DNA of 64,000 nt from an uncultured delta proteobacterium (GCA_963798485.1 CAWCTR010000001.1:1-64000); one strand, 5' to 3'. Positions 37,392 to 50,898 are shown, counted from the stretch's first letter. Notes: a model not told the origin generated them from the letters alone. Numbers and translations: made by a program.

Positions 37392-39251
37392 TTAGGTAAT
37401 AATATTTTTGAAGCCCCGGCCCCACAGCATGTTGTTCAGGCCGGAGACACGATGGGTCCGTCTGGATACTGCGGCAGAGAATATCTCCATAGCGGCCCAG
37501 ATCTCGATTGCGCCCCTGGCCCTGGTTATGCCGGTATAGACGAGTTCCCTGGTGAGCACGGGAGAGTCACGCTCCGGCAGTATGAGCAGCACGTTCTCGA
37601 ACTCGGACCCCTGGCTCTTGTGGACCGTCATGGCAAAGGCGGTCTCGTGTGCCGGCAGCCTTAAGGGTGAAATCTTTCTGACAGACCCGTCCCTAGCCAC
37701 AAAGCAGGCGCGCAGGTCATCCCCATCGCTTACGATGAGCCCGATATCGCCGTTCATGAGCTTCAAAGTATAGTCGTTTTCTGTGACGAGCACGGGCCTG
37801 CCGTGGTAATGCAGCCTGCCGGGCTCGATCAGGCCCGCGCCCTGCAGGATCTCCTCGACGCAGCGATTCAGCGCCTTTACACCGTATGGTCCTTCGCGGA
37901 CAGGGCTCAGGATGCGCAACGTCTCGAAGAGCTGGAAGCACTCATGGATGTCGTCCGAAACAAGAAAACTTCCATATCTCTTGGTGACGATCTCTCTCAG
38001 TGACCTTTTCAATTCTCCCGGCAAAGGCAGTTCCTGCCGGCTAAGATCCTTTCCGTGGCCTGAGTGGAGTATCTCAAGGGATCGGCTGATATCTCCCGAG
38101 TTTACTGCCTCGCCCAGGGCGAAGATGGCGCTGTCTTTGCTGAACCGGTAGGTCCGGGTGAGCTCCACCAGCGAGTCCTGCATACCGCCTTCATCGCCTG
38201 CGGGCACGGCGCACCCTGTGGTCCTGGCCACAAGCCCGGCAAAGTCAGCCGAATAGGCGTGCGAGCCGCCCACATCGCAGATATCCCCGAGCACGTAGCC
38301 TGCCTGAACGGAAGCGAGCTGATTTTTGTCGCCCAGGAGGATAAGGCGGGCGTTTTCCTTGAGGGCCTGGACGAGGTATGACATGAGGGCCAGGTCCGCC
38401 ATAGACGCCTCATCTATGGCGATGACATCTGCACTTAAGGGGTTTGCTGCGCAGTGCCTTGGCAGTGTTGACCCGGGAGAGAATCCGAGGAGCCTGTGGA
38501 TAGTGGTGGCCTCGTGGGGGATCATGGCCTTGATCCCCGGTGCGCAGTCCATGAGTTCAAGGCTGCGCTGGATGGACTCTTCGATCCTGCGGGCCGCCTT
38601 GCCCGTAGGGGCCGCCAAGGCGATCTTCAGGTGAGGCTCCTGCTCGAGGAGCAAAGCCATGATCCTGCAGACGAGCGTGGTCTTGCCCGTGCCCGGCCCG
38701 CCCGTGATCACGCATAAACCCCTGGATACGGCAGCCGCAGCCGCTGCCTTGTGCCGGTCATGCCCGTCGGTCCCGTCCGGGGGAAACATGCGAGCGAGCC
38801 CCCTGGTGAAAAGGGCTTCGTCAAAGGGCATGACCCGGGCGTTCAAACGCAGCAGGACATCGGCCAGTCTCCGTTCGTTCTCATAGGAACGGTGGAGATA
38901 AAGCCTGCCTGACCCGTCCAGGATCAGGGGCCGATAATCGCCCGGGCCGCCCACTACCGGGCACAACCTCAGGGCTGATATCCAGGCATCAGGTGATGGC
39001 AGGTCCAGGACAGCAGGCCCGGCTTCTTTGCCAATCATCCCTGTATTGATTTCGTTCAGATCCAGGCAGGTGTGCCCTTCCCTGCTGAGCCTGCTCACAA
39101 GGGCCGCTGCAAGGGCAAGCTCAGCGCTCTTCGAGCCTGCAAGCTGCACCATGAACCGGGCGAAGTGCACATCAATGGGCTCGAAGAGACCTTCGGGCAG
39201 CATCAGGCCCTGCTCAAGACCTTTCTTGAAGTCAACAGCATCATACGCCAT
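37392..39251 (-). CDS. recD: exodeoxyribonuclease V alpha subunit
   Basis: ITGGPGTGKTT, APTGKAA, TIHRLLG, IDEASM, GDKNQL, MTVHKSQGSEF, YTGITRA. Confidence 0.95.
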   Translation of the reverse strand: MAYDAVDFKKGLEQGLMLPEGLFEPIDVHFARFMVQLAGSKSAELALAAALVSRLSREGHTCLDLNEINTGMIGKEAGPAVLDLPSPDAWISALRLCPVVGGPGDYRPLILDGSGRLYLHRSYENERRLADVLLRLNARVMPFDEALFTRGLARMFPPDGTDGHDRHKAAAAAAVSRGLCVITGGPGTGKTTLVCRIMALLLEQEPHLKIALAAPTGKAARRIEESIQRSLELMDCAPGIKAMIPHEATTIHRLLGFSPGSTLPRHCAANPLSADVIAIDEASMADLALMSYLVQALKENARLILLGDKNQLASVQAGYVLGDICDVGGSHAYSADFAGLVARTTGCAVPAGDEGGMQDSLVELTRTYRFSKDSAIFALGEAVNSGDISRSLEILHSGHGKDLSRQELPLPGELKRSLREIVTKRYGSFLVSDDIHECFQLFETLRILSPVREGPYGVKALNRCVEEILQGAGLIEPGRLHYHGRPVLVTENDYTLKLMNGDIGLIVSDGDDLRACFVARDGSVRKISPLRLPAHETAFAMTVHKSQGSEFENVLLILPERDSPVLTRELVYTGITRARGAIEIWAAMEIFSAAVSRRTHRVSGLNNMLWGRGFKNIIT

Positions 39252-39408
39252 TTGTTTTGACCCTTTACTCATCAACAAGTATAATATCAGTTCATCCGGA
39301 ACAAGCCTTCTTTGCCAGGCACTGAACATAACTTGCTTTGATCGTATACTTTGCTTTCATCATGAATACTTTGCATTGATCATATATCCCTCCCCAATCG
39401 ACAATCAG

Positions 39409-39447
39409 GTCCCCTCCCCCCTTGCGGGGGAGGGACAGGGAGAGGGG
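39409..39447 (+). repeat. hairpin-plus-tail palindromic repeat (family 1), left arm flanking DUF559
   Basis: CCCTCCCCC-CTTGC-GGGGGAGGG stem-loop followed by tail ACAGGGAGAGGGG. Confidence 0.9.
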
Positions 39448-39448
39448 T

Positions 39449-39799
39449 ATGAATAAAATTAATCTCCAACGAGCAAGAGATCTGAGAAAACGATCCACAG
39501 ACGCGGAACGCCTCCTGTGGAAGCACCTCCGCACAAAGAGGATGAACAACCTGAAATTCAAGCGGCAGCAACCAATCGGTAATTATATTGTGGACTTCAT
39601 CTGCTTTGAGAAAAGGATCGTTATCGAACTCGACGGCGGGCAGCATGCACTCCAGAGAGACAAGGACAAGGGGCGCGACTCCTGGCTGGAAGGCCAGGGC
39701 TTCCTCATCCTGAGATTCTGGAATAATGATGTCCTCACCAATATCCATGGTGTCATGGAGGTTATCATACGTACTTGTTCTGAAGCCCATAGCCTTTAA
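39449..39799 (+). CDS. DUF559 (Vsr-like PD-(D/E)xK) endonuclease domain protein
   Basis: ARDLRKRSTDAERLLWKHLR, FKRQQPIGNYIVDF, IELDGGQH, RD.WL..QGF.ILRFWNNDV. Confidence 0.9.
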   Translation: MNKINLQRARDLRKRSTDAERLLWKHLRTKRMNNLKFKRQQPIGNYIVDFICFEKRIVIELDGGQHALQRDKDKGRDSWLEGQGFLILRFWNNDVLTNIHGVMEVIIRTCSEAHSL

Positions 39800-39804
39800 T
39801 CTGC

Positions 39805-39842
39805 CCCCTCTCCCTGTCCCTCCCCCTTGCGGGGGAGGGGAC
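39805..39842 (-). repeat. family 1 repeat, right arm (inverted relative to 39409-39447)
   Basis: CCCCTCTCCCTGT tail, then CCCTCCCCC-TTGC-GGGGGAGGG, then GAC. Confidence 0.9.
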
Positions 39843-39904: not shown

Positions 39905-39944
39905 ACTCCTCCCCCCTTGATGGGGGAGGCTGGGAGAGGGTGAA
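39905..39944 (+). repeat. family 1 repeat variant
   Basis: ACTCCTCCCCCCTTGATGGGGGAGGCTGGGAGAGGGTGAA; near-identical copy at 40637-40675 inside recB. Confidence 0.85.
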
Positions 39945-39961
39945 TATGGAATAATTCCTTA

Positions 39962-43827
<3,866 letters not shown>

Positions 43828-43834
<7 letters not shown>

Positions 43835-46800
43835 TTGCCAGCCTCCAGAGAGTCGATGAGAGGACCGTACACCGTCATGGCCAGCTCGCGGAACTCGTCA
43901 TCCAGGGGATCAGTGCCTGCAAAGCAGATCCGTATGGCCGCATCTTCGCTTTCACCGCTCTTATTCCAGCCCCCGCTCCAGGCCTTGCCAGCCTCCTGCA
44001 TGGCCCTCTGTTCATTACCCGTCTTCTTCATGTGCTCTGCATAGGCGTACGAGCTTTTGGGGAAGAAATGGAGCGGCCGGCACAGGCCCTGCCAGTACAC
44101 GTCCAGGAGCCCCTTCAGCACGGCAAAAGGCTCCTCCCCAGAGCTGATGCAGGCCTGCCCTGCCTTGTGGATGTGCATGCCCGCTACCTGCGCACCCGGG
44201 CTCACGGCCTTGAGCAGGAGCACGCTGACCCAGGCCCGCATGAGGTCGCCCGGTTTCAGGTCCGCATAGCGGAACGAGAGGAACCCGCCGCGGCCAAGAC
44301 AGTCAACTGCCCCGGTGATCGTGAAGGCGCCCACGGTCACGCTCACGTCTTTCCTGACCATCTCATAGCCCGCCATGGCCCGCCTGATGAGCGGGAGGAA
44401 GGCATCGATCTCACTGGCAATGCCTGCAAGCGCCAGCTCTCCCGGCACGCCGTGGGGCAGCACCCCTTCGGCCCTGAGCCGTGCCACGTCCGTCTCGCAG
44501 CCCTTTCCTCTCAGCCTCTCAGCCAGGATCCGCTGCTGCAGTCCGTATTGATCGAGACCCGTTATGGCAAAGGGCTCCCGGTCGAGGAGTGCATCTTCCT
44601 CCCGGGGCAGCACAGCGCCAAGGCGGTGCCTCAGGAAGAACCGGGCCGGGTTCCGGAAGAACTCCAGGAGGCGCTCCATGTTCACGCCCAGCCATTCTTG
44701 CTCGGGTTCGGAAAGCCTCACCGCCTCCCCCTGCCCTGCCTGTGCCCCTGTGCGGAGCGCCCTGGCAGCGTCCGCATTGTCCCTGGAATAGCTGAACAGG
44801 CCCGTGCCTGCGGTGAAGTATTTGGGGTTGAAGGCCTGGAGGCAGTGGCGCTTCACCACTCGCTTGCTCACCGGCCCCTCCGGGCTCGTAAAGGCCCTGT
44901 CGAGGTATTCCAGCAGGCTGCTCACCACCACCGAGGGCGGGATAGCGGCATTGTCCTGGATGCCCTGGCCCACGTGGCTGATGGAGAGCACGTTACGGGC
45001 CGAGAGCAGGGCCTCGAGGAAGAGGTAGAGGTCGTCTTCGCGCCGGGAGCGGTCGCCCTTGCGCGGGTGCATGGACATGAGATCGAGCCCGCTTGCGTAG
45101 TCCCTGCGCGGGAAGGATTCATGGTTCATGCCCATGAGGCAGATCACCTTGAACGGGATGCTCCGCATGGGCAGCATGGAGCAGAAGGTGACCCCGCGCT
45201 CCAGGAACCCGGCCCCTTCCGCGGCACTGCCGAAGGCGTTGCCCAGGTGGTGCCGCACCACGTCACAGCTCACCGTGCCGGTGAACCCGGCATCCCGCGC
45301 GATCTTCTCCAGGTTCCGCACAGCGGATTTCAGCCGCAGAAGCTCCGAAGGGTCTCCTCATCCGCAGCAAACAGGTCGTCGATGATCGTGAGGAGCACCT
45401 GTGACCATTCGCCAAGCCCCCGCTCCTGCCTGAGCTCGTCGACTATGGCAAAGAGCCTCTCCACGAAATCCACAAAGCTGCCCAGGAGATCTGCCGAGGC
45501 AGGGTCCATGCCGGTCAAGGGTGCGATGCCCTCGAACAGCTCTTCTCCCCCGCCATGGCATAGCCCAGCAGGAGCCTCTTCAGACCGAAGCCCCAGGTGT
45601 TCTCCTCAAACCCGGGCAGGCCCATTGCCTCTTTATCACGACCGTCCCTGCCCCACCGGATGTTGGCCCCAGTAACCCATGCATGGACCTTCCTCACCGC
45701 CTCCTCGTCCATGCCGAACCGCGCCCGCACCGGCGCCTTGTCCAGCAGATCCATGACGAGCGAAGCCTCGAAGCGCTGCCCAGGCAAATCGAGCACAGCC
45801 ATGAGCGCATCCGCCAGCTGGGAGCTGCGCCTGAACGACCGGTCCGAGATGCTGTAGGGTATGCGGCGCGAATCCCCCCTATCCATATCGAACACGGCCC
45901 GTATAAAGGGCGCATAAGACTCAATATCAGGCGCCATAACCAGCACGTCCCGCGGCTCCAGCCCTTCCTTGCCCTCCTCCCCCTCCTTATCTTCCTCTCC
46001 CCTCTGGGGAGAGGACTGAGGTGAGGGGTACCTTTTACCCTCCTCCCCCCTGGTGGGGGAGGATTGAGGAGAGGGGGACAAAGGAGAGGGGGAATTCTCG
46101 AAGAGTTCCAGCAGCGTATCCAGCAGCACCTCCACCTCCCGCATGGGGCTGTGACACGAGTGCACCTGGATAGAGCAATCGCCAACCTCCACCTCCTCCG
46201 CCCCCTCATCGCCGCTCGTCCTCAAATTCAATATGTCATCCTGAACCTTAGCCAGCATGGTAGCTCGCCCGCCCCCCACAAACAAATCCGTCTCCTCAGG
46301 CTCCAGATCAATGACCATGTCCAGGAAGTTCCTACCAAGCCTGCCCATGCTTGCCAGAAGATCATTGCGCGATTCCAGGTGCAAATCCGCCTCCGGCACC
46401 TTGCTAACGAACCTGGTGATGCGCCTTTCCGGCATGATGTCCGCCCAGTATTCCCTGCAGGGGTTCAGGCAGTAGAGGCTGACATCCATCAAAGCGGAAA
46501 GACCCTTCAGCACCTCCAGATGGAATGCAGGCAGATACGAGATGCCGAAGATGGACACCCTCTCGGGCAGCTTCGACACATCCGAGCGCGCAAGCCCGCT
46601 GCTGAAGAGCTGCTTGAGCCGGGCGCGGTGGTTCGCATCGTCCCCTTCAACAATCTTGTTCCAGAGCACGGCCTGCCAGTTCTCCGGGTAGCCCGCAGGC
46701 GCATTGCCGCCCTCTTCCCACCCGAGCACCAGCTCGGGCCTGAATATGACATACTGGTCATAGATGTTCGCCATCATGGCGCTGAACTGGTAGAGCTTCA

Positions 46801-47167
46801 TGCCTGCAGTGTCGCCCTGGAGGTAGTCCCTGATCCGGCTGAAGCCGCCCAAGCCCAGGAGCCCGGGCAGACAGTCCATGATGCGCAGCGTCATGGCATC
46901 CTTCTCGAACAGAGCGGGCTGCGTGACCCCCGGCAGGATGCGCGAGAACATGTCCAGCACAAAGGCATTGGGAAACGGCCAGCTGACGTTCGCGCACACC
47001 CCGCTGCTGCGCGCCAGCTCCATGGAGAGCCAGCGCTGCATGCCGCGGCTCTGCACAACGATGACCTCGGGAGCAATCGGCGATGAGAGCGGTTCGGACA
47101 AAGATAGAGCAAGGGCCTGCGAAAGGACCTCGAGCCGGTTGCTCTCAATAAGTCTCAGGCCTGACAA
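43828..47167 (-). CDS. recC: exodeoxyribonuclease V gamma subunit; two frameshifts (about 45540 and 45345) and an in-frame repeat insertion
   Basis: SNRLEVL, VVQSRGMQRWL, NPCREYW, HSCHSPMREVEVL, VMAPDI, PMRSIPF, FLEALLSAR. Confidence 0.92.
45993..46077 (+). repeat. two tandem family 1 repeats in frame inside RecC
   Basis: TCCTCTCCCC-TCT-GGGGAGAGGA-CTGAGGTGAGGGG and TCCTCCCCC-CTGGT-GGGGGAGGA-TTGAGGAGAGGGG; they encode PSPQSSP(T/Q)RGEE twice. Confidence 0.85.
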
Positions 47168-50281: not shown

Positions 50282-50898
50282 AACCTCCGGCAAAGCCGGA
50301 GGCTTGATTAAACCATGAACCGCTCAAAGCGGTTTAACCCGAGTACCTTTGTCCCTAGCTGAATATGTTCATCTGCTCAAGCCGCTGGTCTTCTTGCTCC
50401 TGCTTCTTGATGTATGACCGGACAACTTCCTCATCCATCCCTACCGTGCTCACATAGTAGCCCCTGGCCCAAAATTGCTGACCCGTGAAATTCTTCCTCC
50501 GCCCCAGGTATGCCCGTGCTATATGTATCGCACTCTTCCCCTTGATATACCCGATCACTTGGGATACCGAATACTTCGGCGGGATCGATATCAGCATGTG
50601 TATATGGTCCTGCATCAGATGCCCTTCGATAACTTCGCTCTCCCTCTGTATGGCCAGTCTCTTCATCACCTCACCAAGATACTTCCTCAACTGCCTATAC
50701 AACGCCTTCCTTCGATATTTCGGTATCCATACAACATGATACTTGCATTCCCATCGGGTGTGCCTTAGACTCTGTTCTTCTTCCATGTTTTGCCTCCTCT
50801 TCTGTAAACTTTGAGCGGTTCACAGTTCGGAGGCTCTTCAATTTTCCCGGAATTGTCAAACTCCGGTGAGTCACCCCGGCATAGCCGGGGGTTTACCT
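50280..50898 (-). mobile_element. IS200/IS605-family element (tnpA only)
   Basis: Subterminal hairpins CCTCCGGC-AAA-GCCGGAGG and CCCCGGC-ATA-GCCGGGG; inserted 3' of TTAT on the minus strand; right end also ends in TTAT. Confidence 0.9.
50355..50786 (-). CDS. tnpA: IS200 Y1 (HUH) transposase
   Basis: YHVVWIPKYRRK, DHIHML, KGKS, FWARGYYVSTVG, YIKKQ. Confidence 0.95.
   Translation of the reverse strand: MEEEQSLRHTRWECKYHVVWIPKYRRKALYRQLRKYLGEVMKRLAIQRESEVIEGHLMQDHIHMLISIPPKYSVSQVIGYIKGKSAIHIARAYLGRRKNFTGQQFWARGYYVSTVGMDEEVVRSYIKKQEQEDQRLEQMNIFS

Follow-up and report, generated by a model that had tools for sequence, protein, structure and literature searches.

The window, that is, the whole stretch of 64,000 nucleotides that was analyzed, contains at positions 39409-39842 a cassette of 434 bases, in which a DUF559 gene is placed between a left repeat unit and an inverted right repeat unit. 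The same layout was found at homologous loci in many other genomes, and a specific, conserved partnership of stand-alone DUF559 genes with flanking inverted units is well supported. Both the repeat class and the protein family have been described before, but we found no paper that pairs them. We read the cassette as a selfish element, the nuclease of which would act on its own end units like a homing endonuclease while host repair copies the cassette, and we give this reading a probability of about one half.

The DUF559 gene is intact, occupies positions 39449-39799 on the plus strand and encodes 116 amino acids (Pfam PF04480, E 4.8e-43). It lies between recD (37392-39329, minus strand, with the real start ATG at about 39251) and recB, the ORF pieces of which extend over 39962-43834 on the minus strand (the last piece is 39962-41797), and it is antisense to both. 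The ORF and the PF04480 match agree with the earlier note on this DNA, which had described a 116-aa DUF559 gene antisense between recB and recD. DUF559 is the only ORF in the cassette, and no DDE, serine, tyrosine or HUH transposase was found there. The residues D49, E60, D62 and H66 of the protein are conserved in the alignment. The nearest solved structure is 3HRL (3hrl_A, E 4.1e-29), an 'endonuclease-like protein' of N. gonorrhoeae, and the NCBIfam model PRK09767 (E. coli YcjD) matches the window protein at E 1.8e-35, below the cut-off of that model. Both E. coli YcjD and 3HRL are full-length homologues of the window protein, and the units of ycjD are only degenerate or displaced. DUF559 is a large family that includes E. 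coli YcjD and the solved structure 3HRL, and we know of no role for it. As judged from its sequence, the window protein is a Vsr-like PD-(D/E)xK nuclease of putative activity. The kinship of fold between DUF559 and 3r3p is taken from a published classification (PMC3424549).

Two units enclose this gene as tightly as had been described previously, one at 39409-39447 on the plus strand (TM-L) and the other at 39802-39842 on the minus strand (TM-R). TM-L consists, in order, of a C-rich arm, a TTGC loop, a complementary G-rich arm, ACA as the second loop and the third block GGGAGAGGGG. It thus forms a C/G hairpin of 9-10 bp followed by ACAGGGAGAGGGG, and its last base is 1 nt upstream of the ATG. 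The first loop is 4-5 nt and the second loop 1-3 nt. TM-R possesses the three blocks on the minus strand, inverted with respect to TM-L; it begins 2-5 nt past the TAA, with its C-rich third block nearest to the stop codon. The earlier note had spoken of inverted arms with a polypurine tail. The block arrangement is indeed inverted, but the right hairpin loop is not an inverted copy of the left one, since the loops of TM-L and TM-R are both TTGC on the plus strand. The polypurine stretch is also present, but rather than hanging on as a tail it makes up the third, mirror-repeat block of a triplex motif. The third block of TM-L probably supplies the ribosome-binding site (Shine-Dalgarno) of the DUF559 gene. 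A rule that both units carry the same loop on the plus strand was considered as well. This is true in the window and not general across the 46 loci with the canonical layout (see below), in which the loops, each read on its own strand, were the same in 12, the reverse complement in 2 and different in 32.

In their block structure, the units correspond to a published class of repeat, the class II purine-motif intrastrand triplex. The ITxF search criteria of Holder et al. (2015, NAR 43:10126, PMC4666352) ask for a pyrimidine arm, a complementary purine arm and a purine third block in succession, the stems being 6-15 nt long and the loops 1-6 nt. In the window, this arrangement was found at 39411-39446, 39806-39840, 39908-39941, 40590-40624, 40640-40672, 45992-46028 and 46040-46075. 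In these seven units, the stems measure 9-11 nt, the first loops 3-5 nt and the second loops 1-3 nt. In this class, the third block should furthermore mirror the purine arm and not copy it directly, with T allowed opposite A. In a mirror test, hairpins were found genome-wide in the source genome (G000) irrespective of the 3′ flank, which gave 116 strands with an asymmetric purine arm. The 3′ flank fitted the mirror at k-2 or better in 44 of the 116 strands and a direct copy in 15. The mirror was the better fit in 56 hairpin strands and the direct copy in 24, with 36 ties (n = 116), in a count that takes each palindromic hairpin on both strands and thereby dilutes the signal.

The sequences point in the same direction. 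The blocks CCCTCTCCC / GGGAGAGGG / GGGTGAGGG are common to family A of the source genome and to Table 1 of TMECO (PMC4666352), and the two flanking units of the window carry a variant of them, CCCTCCCCC / GGGGGAGGG / GGGAGAGGG. The E. coli TMECO downstream of ycjD has the blocks of family A, which are also found in the flanks of several cassettes from other phyla. Three cassette loci (L086, L095 and L112) carry the blocks of TMECO Table 1, and L112 additionally has TTA and CCG second loops. Thus, from the block structure and the nearly identical sequence, we assign the units to the published BoxC/PIT/TMECO intrastrand-triplex class. One unit strand is predicted to be able to fold either as a hairpin or as a purine-motif intrastrand triplex; of these two forms, the hairpin is the one given by a ViennaRNA DNA fold, which models base-paired stems. 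The repeats had been taken for a REP-like family in the earlier note; instead, they fit the block design and the sequence of BoxC/PIT/TMECO. A comparison with Rfam gave nine matches at E<=1, all of which were far under the gathering scores and resembled miRNA-like hairpin noise, so that no family applies.

According to Holder et al., bacteria ranging from E. coli to cyanobacteria have abundant repeats of this class, which fold into triplexes in vitro and mark sites of genome instability (PMC4666352); earlier BoxC work and Hoyne et al. 2000 precede that paper, as cited there. The units described here share with them the C-rich, complementary G-rich and mirror G-rich blocks separated by short loops, the joining of different unit types in inverted pairs (type A with type B in E. 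coli) and the pan-bacterial distribution (PMC4666352). In contrast, the text of that paper reports no associated gene and no mobility functions near TMECO, whereas the units here form the ends of a nuclease cassette (PMC4666352).

The seven further copies listed in the earlier note all exist by a repeat search. The structural detector described below recovers most of them, at 39908, 40590, 40640, 45978/45992 and 46040, whereas the copies at 40384 and 40684 are degenerate. A solo unit (39905-39942, plus strand) is located between the cassette and the recB stop codon and is 97% identical over 36 nt to positions 40643-40678. The reading frame of recB contains a degenerate unit (40384-40425, minus strand), a further unit (40582-40627, minus strand) and an in-frame gene-less doublet (40637-40722), in which a spacer of 9 nt separates a plus-strand unit (40637-40674) from an inverted one (40684-40722). 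The third blocks of this doublet point inward, as in the cassette layout minus the gene. In the recC reading frame, there are a hairpin with a purine third block on both strands (45978-46028) and a unit on the plus strand (46040-46078). Within the recB linker, 342 nt are read through in frame as peptide. Folding z-scores (ViennaRNA, DNA fold) were modest for single units (-0.8 to -2.4) and reached -4.5 for the doublet region 40634-40726, which folds into three stems with its two complementary third blocks paired. In this part of the window, eight units are grouped within 7 kb.

Since the consensus written in the earlier note was too strict, it was replaced by the structural detector. The consensus proved too narrow, with two exact matches genome-wide, although its hairpin core occurs 20 times, seven of them on contig C1. 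The detector found 78 units in the 4.30-Mb source genome and 4 after a 50-nt block shuffle. Thus, the unit pattern is beyond chance. The source genome holds at least four unit families (A, B, C and D) and about nine inward-facing doublets, each of which joins two different unit types.

Exactly two DUF559 matches were present in this genome, and both genes are enclosed by inverted units, which belong to different families. The second gene, on contig C30, is flanked by family-C units of the type CCCCCCTTT / AAAGGGGGG / GGGGGGATT; its start codon directly adjoins the third block, and past its stop codon there is an inverted unit. The nearest units lie 3 and 7 nt from one of the two genes and 7 and 25 nt from the other. 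In addition, a family-B doublet was found at C7:589322-589535. Comparison with the loci L126 and L004 identified it as a remnant, the 146-nt spacer of which encodes the first ~14 and the last ~30 codons of a family-B DUF559. Since the spacer keeps both ends of the gene, this locus is an internally deleted cassette. Thus, at least one gene-less doublet is derived from a cassette by internal deletion. Some multi-copy doublets of the same genome share one spacer. Beside its two intact cassettes, which differ in unit family, the source genome therefore holds a deleted remnant and the read-through units in recB and recC.

To cover other genomes, a one-genome-per-species search was performed with a profile of seven DUF559 sequences. 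This gave 594 homologous loci, and the best 80 were analyzed. Since these were ranked by likeness to flanked genes, the fractions given here are valid for the YcjD-like stand-alone subfamily and not for all DUF559. The best 80 loci span Nitrospirota, Chloroflexota, Planctomycetota, Proteobacteria, Deinococcus, candidate phyla and others. A unit was detected within 120 nt upstream in 60 of these 80 loci, within 150 nt downstream in 65 and on both sides in 53, and the canonical layout (plus-strand unit upstream, minus-strand unit downstream) was observed in 46. The unit density in the best 80 loci was 6.5/kb at the gene borders and 0.27/kb in the far flanks (~24-fold), and no unit was found within the gene in any of them. 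This is the enrichment near stand-alone DUF559 genes that had been proposed as a check. The orientation was biased as well: upstream units were on the plus strand in 55 cases and on the minus strand in 16, and downstream units on the minus strand in 62 and on the plus strand in 26. The ORF continues into the downstream unit, or passes through it, in 42 of the 46 canonical loci. The earlier idea of a unit organized like REP/RAYT thus gained support, since the layout is present at both genes of the source genome and at 46 of the 80 homologous loci.

In relatives, 15 strong DUF559 matches were obtained. Twelve of them represent either a stand-alone gene or an insert in frame. Each of these 12 non-intein loci has one or more units next to it, and a canonical unit pair was observed in 8. 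The canonical layout was also found in 17 of 19 loci picked by hand from the phylum sample. The distribution of the gene is patchy, with DUF559 present in 4 of 14 same-genus genomes and in 74 of the 301 genomes of the phylum sample.

The occurrence of the repeat was then compared with that of the gene. The family-A pattern was present in 60 of the 74 DUF559-positive genomes and in 71 of the 227 DUF559-negative genomes, corresponding to an odds ratio of 9.4, in which related genomes are not independent and the pattern counts include some overlapping matches. Away from DUF559, pattern matches numbered from tens to >160 per genome. This ratio is in line with the expectation in the earlier note that repeat abundance depends on DUF559, but many repeat-rich genomes lack a detectable DUF559. 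At E<=1e-15, no DUF559 was found in G028 (95 matches), G083 (65), G217 (62) and G295 (50), which are draft genomes and may therefore have a gene that was missed. Thus, a model in which the nuclease drives the repeat has to be treated with caution. In E. coli K-12, which has 23 TMECO, ycjD possesses no canonical flanks; a degenerate unit is located at its stop codon and a full TMECO ~150 nt downstream. Carriage of the cassette by phages or plasmids was also considered. It is rare in both collections: the 50,697 phage records included 2 with a cassette and the 72,556 plasmid records 46, among them several of chromosome size.

Comparison of gene junctions showed that the cassettes come and go. 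In G007 and G011, the closest relatives (RecD 84% and 83% identical), the recB stop codon is 16 nt before the recD ATG, and neither unit nor gene is present. Thus, the empty recB-recD sites asked for in the earlier note do exist. At the same junction, G002 has no unit, and G003 carries a solo unit, the right flank of which is homologous. The solo unit of G003, compared with the cassette and units of the source genome, fits either a gain or a deletion between direct units. Alignment to the G007 and G011 junctions also revealed that the final ~45-55 nt of recB occur a second time, in decayed form, at 39255-39320 (minus strand), beside the real recD start. The insert of ~650 nt in the source genome is therefore bracketed by the functional 3′ end of recB (~39962-40010) and this decayed duplicate, that is, by a direct duplication, which may have come either from the insertion mechanism or from selection for an intact recB. 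The second cassette of the source genome occupies the cdsA/dxr junction. In 10 of the 11 same-genus relatives examined, this junction is TGAATG with nothing between the genes, and in G013 there is an insert of ~100 nt that shares the right flank and has no cassette. No short target-site duplication was found at either cassette of the source genome. Whole cassettes and single units were also found in frame inside genes, for example in a DNA methyltransferase gene of G033. Four public DNA runs yielded short, low-depth contigs with no joints and no bridging record.

The relation between nuclease lineage and unit family was analyzed in G063, which has six cassettes, each with its own unit type. 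Two of these cassettes (L124 and L125) are 87% identical over 484 nt, and the identity starts exactly at the left unit. Between them, 77 of 81 unit positions are identical, compared with 82 of 111 third codon positions and 209 of 223 first and second codon positions. These values show for one pair that protein and units alike are much better conserved than silent sites, and that the units change at about the slow pace of the replacement sites in the gene. Every nuclease lineage has a unit family of its own. However, since the gene and its flanks are physically linked, this co-variation could also be explained by descent alone.

We propose the following mechanism for the selfish cassette. The Vsr-like nuclease would recognize its own end units, folded or as duplex, and nick or cut there, behaving as a free-standing homing endonuclease. 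Host recombination and repair would subsequently place copies of the cassette at further units, and the nuclease may, by the activity it exerts on its own ends, also maintain or multiply gene-less doublets in trans. The gene-less doublets would be deletion derivatives, landing sites or both. DUF559 would stand to these repeats as RAYT stands to REP/REPINs, with a PD-(D/E)xK nuclease in place of the HUH transposase. Recognition and cleavage of the units, the route of copying and the action in trans are inferred steps. Three of the 15 DUF559 genes in the relatives lie between sub-threshold Hint and Intein_splicing matches and do not have canonical flanks. Inteins place a homing endonuclease in this slot. 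Since DUF559 has been grouped with Vsr and the group I intron homing endonuclease 3r3p as one clade (PMC3424549), and since DUF559 occupies the intein endonuclease slot in three relatives, a homing-type activity is plausible. The spacers of doublets (17-84 nt) fit poorly to a single fixed homing site between the units. To our knowledge, Vsr-like nucleases have no strand-transfer (joining) chemistry, and the spread to new sites would therefore need host functions. Tentatively, and with less confidence than in the selfish cassette as such, we suggest that such cassettes may be a new class of minimal autonomous mobile elements of ~430 bp, the ends of which are read in a folded form (hairpin or triplex), and that the BoxC/PIT/TMECO repeats of E. 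coli, together with related repeats in hundreds of bacterial genomes, may be their non-autonomous offspring or landing sites.

It is rather unlikely, though the best of the alternatives, that DUF559, as a small gene either useful or selfish in itself, is only cargo often carried between the two units, and that the doublets move or multiply by another host or mobile enzyme or by structure-induced replication slippage and recombination. The most numerous doublet family in the source genome, D1/D2 with ~9 doublets, has no cognate DUF559, and its spacers are unrelated in sequence and range from 17 to 84 nt, as expected if the repeats move by other means. Together with the displaced units of ycjD and the rare carriage by phages and plasmids, this family argues against a simple driver model. 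The genomes rich in the pattern but devoid of DUF559 are in line with a cargo role, and Holder et al. tie the motifs themselves to genomic instability (PMC4666352). However, a single gene family fills the slot across phyla, its orientation being fixed and its start codon lying directly at the third block; no other type of cargo gene was seen between units, and the nuclease lineages each keep their own unit family. Y1 transposases, which might have supplied the moving enzyme, are not adjacent to units in the source genome: for the eight Y1 matches (PF01797), either no unit lies within 1.5 kb or the contig has no units. The Y1 match in the window (50400-50756) is accompanied by ordinary IS200/IS605-type hairpins. 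A RAYT/TIRYT partner of the units was likewise rejected for this genome, where the Y1 genes are away from the units and the RAYT-like genes of contig C10 carry AAAAGGGGAC-type repeats.

The homology to the Vsr repair nickase could instead mean that DUF559 acts on the hairpins, triplexes or heteroduplexes formed by the repeats as a structure- or mismatch-repair nickase in the manner of Vsr, limiting instability or biasing gene conversion between repeat copies; the gene would be kept among the repeats where it is needed, or hitch-hike with them. TMECO sites are rearrangement hot spots (Holder 2015, PMC4666352), the gene is low-copy and under purifying selection, and the identity of units within genomes is very high, all of which would suit such a role. 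Nevertheless, we regard it as improbable. Even among relatives of the same genus, the gene has a patchy distribution (4 of 14), and a repair enzyme acting in trans needs no precise inverted flanking. Furthermore, the cassettes are insertion-polymorphic and deleted remnants of them exist, which a selfish element fits better.

The position of the left unit also allows the view that the units serve the expression of the gene and accompany it for regulatory reasons only. The left one would be a ribosome-binding site or promoter-proximal structure, and the right one a terminator, an mRNA stabilizer or a partner that gates translation by pairing with the left third block. In the window, GGGAGAGGGG lies 1 nt upstream of the ATG, and the end of the third block is located between -6 and +13 nt from the start codon in 33 of 40 loci. 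The third blocks are complementary to each other and are paired in the doublet fold. As the whole explanation of the layout, this seems quite improbable, slightly more so than a repair role, because units are dispersed far from any DUF559, within coding regions and as gene-less doublets, and because Holder et al., like the earlier work cited there, found no function of the copies in E. coli as promoters, terminators or regulators (PMC4666352). Finally, although eight units within 7 kb could be a local enrichment of GC-rich palindromes that gather in intergenic DNA with the gene merely among them, such a coincidence is hardly conceivable given the 24-fold border density over the far flanks in 80 loci with its orientation bias, a second cassette that uses another unit family, and the 4 units in the shuffled genome against 78.

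The selfish cassette that we favor resembles several known systems without being identical to any of them. As in REP/REPIN-RAYT systems, a low-copy enzyme gene is flanked by inverted copies of a dispersed repeat, gene-less inverted doublets are abundant and one enzyme lineage corresponds to each repeat family. However, the enzyme here is a Vsr-like PD-(D/E)xK protein and not an HUH/Y1 (IS200/IS605-like) protein, the repeat has a mirror third block, the Y1 genes are away from the units, and whole cassettes are insertion-polymorphic and also occur in frame within genes. With the Vsr-like homing endonucleases (I-Bth0305I, PDB 3r3p), the window protein shares the small size and the fold clade (PMC3424549). 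The cassettes are likewise patchy, with presence/absence polymorphism at conserved junctions in which the empty allele is intact (recB/recD and cdsA/dxr). Unlike homing endonuclease genes, they are associated with neither intron nor intein, and the putative target is a multi-copy structured repeat and not a unique gene site. A pair of an autonomous element and its MITE is similar in having terminal inverted repeats on both a coding element and shorter non-coding derivatives, to which the C7 derivative with both gene ends and the multi-copy doublets sharing a spacer correspond. It differs in that the cassette has no recognized transposase and no short target-site duplication, and measures ~434 bp with one protein of 116 aa.

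Among the papers listed by full-text literature searches, none links DUF559 or YcjD to these repeats. The main text of Holder et al. 2015 contains no mention of ycjD, DUF559 or endonuclease (this search covered the main text, the flanking-gene table S2 being in the supplement), and PMC11602168 contains no mention of the DUF559 and repeat terms searched.

The cassette points to a partner enzyme for a repeat family that has long been unexplained. If the wider reading of BoxC/PIT/TMECO as offspring or landing sites of such cassettes is true, it would provide an origin for a 30-year-old orphan repeat and, at the same time, a function for the DUF559/YcjD family. If the nuclease binds or cuts the folded repeat and drives copying, this would also constitute a repeat-enzyme partnership parallel to REP/RAYT with another fold and another DNA structure, and it would explain the 'GEGxGEG / PLSP' peptide inserts that units leave in frame in proteins, here in recB and recC. 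Since DUF559 and the repeat are joined in one cassette, both questions, the origin of the repeat and the function of the protein family, become directly testable in E. coli K-12.

Triplex-motif units (a C-rich arm, a G-rich arm and a mirror G-rich third block) were also detected inside the recB gene. The recB linker, which separates the helicase C-terminal domain from the nuclease domain, contains an in-frame block of 342 nt (114 codons; window 40384-40725) made up of these units and one further palindrome. The translation of the block includes GEGEGQGEG. In the relative G007, recB carries a unit at the position that matches this block. The palindrome is 91 nt long (window 40433-40523, arms GTCATTGCGAGGGAG...) and belongs to a repeat family other than the triplex-motif units. 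Only two relatives of the palindrome, both partial, were found in the source genome (C9:1689-1722 and C7:189597-189634), and each has triplex-motif units no more than about 300 nt away. The palindrome was found in public runs too, on contigs of other organisms.

The reading frames of recB and recC are split. The recB gene (window 39962-43834) consists of three ORF pieces, the middle one in a different frame, and recC (window 43828-47167) is divided into two, its frame being broken close to 45515-45550 and 45321-45340. Either the genes are frameshifted pseudogenes or the assembly contains indel errors here; in-frame stops are present also in the RecD matches of relatives. A decayed copy of the recB 3′ end (window 39255-39320) adjoins recD. 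Because of this duplicate, the annotated recD ORF of 645 aa probably has 26 surplus codons at its 5′ end; its actual ATG lies near 39251, in agreement with G007 and the further genome G011.

Beyond the cassette between recB and recD, in which two inverted units enclose the DUF559 gene, a second cassette of the source genome is placed at the cdsA/dxr junction (C30:196600-197250). Additional non-repeat DNA surrounds this cassette, with about 80 nt to its left and about 55 nt to its right. The right-hand stretch is also present at the cdsA/dxr junction of another genome (G013, locus L150), where there is no cassette; it could represent an older insert that both genomes share, or one site having been used repeatedly. 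Separately, C7:589322-589535 is an internally deleted DUF559 cassette of unit family B, in which both gene ends are retained in a spacer of 146 nt with an inverted unit on each side.

In the ycjD region of E. coli K-12 (L043 11040-11830), the ycjD reading frame enters a degenerate unit at its stop. A copy of about 40 nt of the gene's own 3′ end is located downstream, and a full TMECO lies about 150 nt downstream of ycjD in direct, not inverted, orientation. In G063, two cassettes (L124 and L125) are 87% identical and are themselves enclosed by a further inverted repeat, CTTTCTCATTTCAAGTGG and the complementary sequence, located outside the units at a distance of about 15 nt on the left side and about 45 nt on the right.

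The window also encodes an IS200/IS605-type Y1 transposase (50400-50756, minus strand; PF01797, E 2.2e-37), whose own flanking hairpins are unrelated to the triplex-motif units.

DUF559 was further found in other gene contexts. In the relative G033, an N6_N4 DNA methylase shares an open frame of 796 aa (L005 664-3054, minus strand) with a complete DUF559 cassette and with several triplex-motif units that are in frame; L024 is a paralogous case. At three loci in relatives (L011 of G035, L012 of G031 and L028 of G033), the DUF559 domain is flanked by Hint-type and Intein_splicing matches, all below the Pfam cut-off; at L012, this arrangement sits within a DNA methylase gene. The three loci may be inteins in which DUF559 would serve as the endonuclease.
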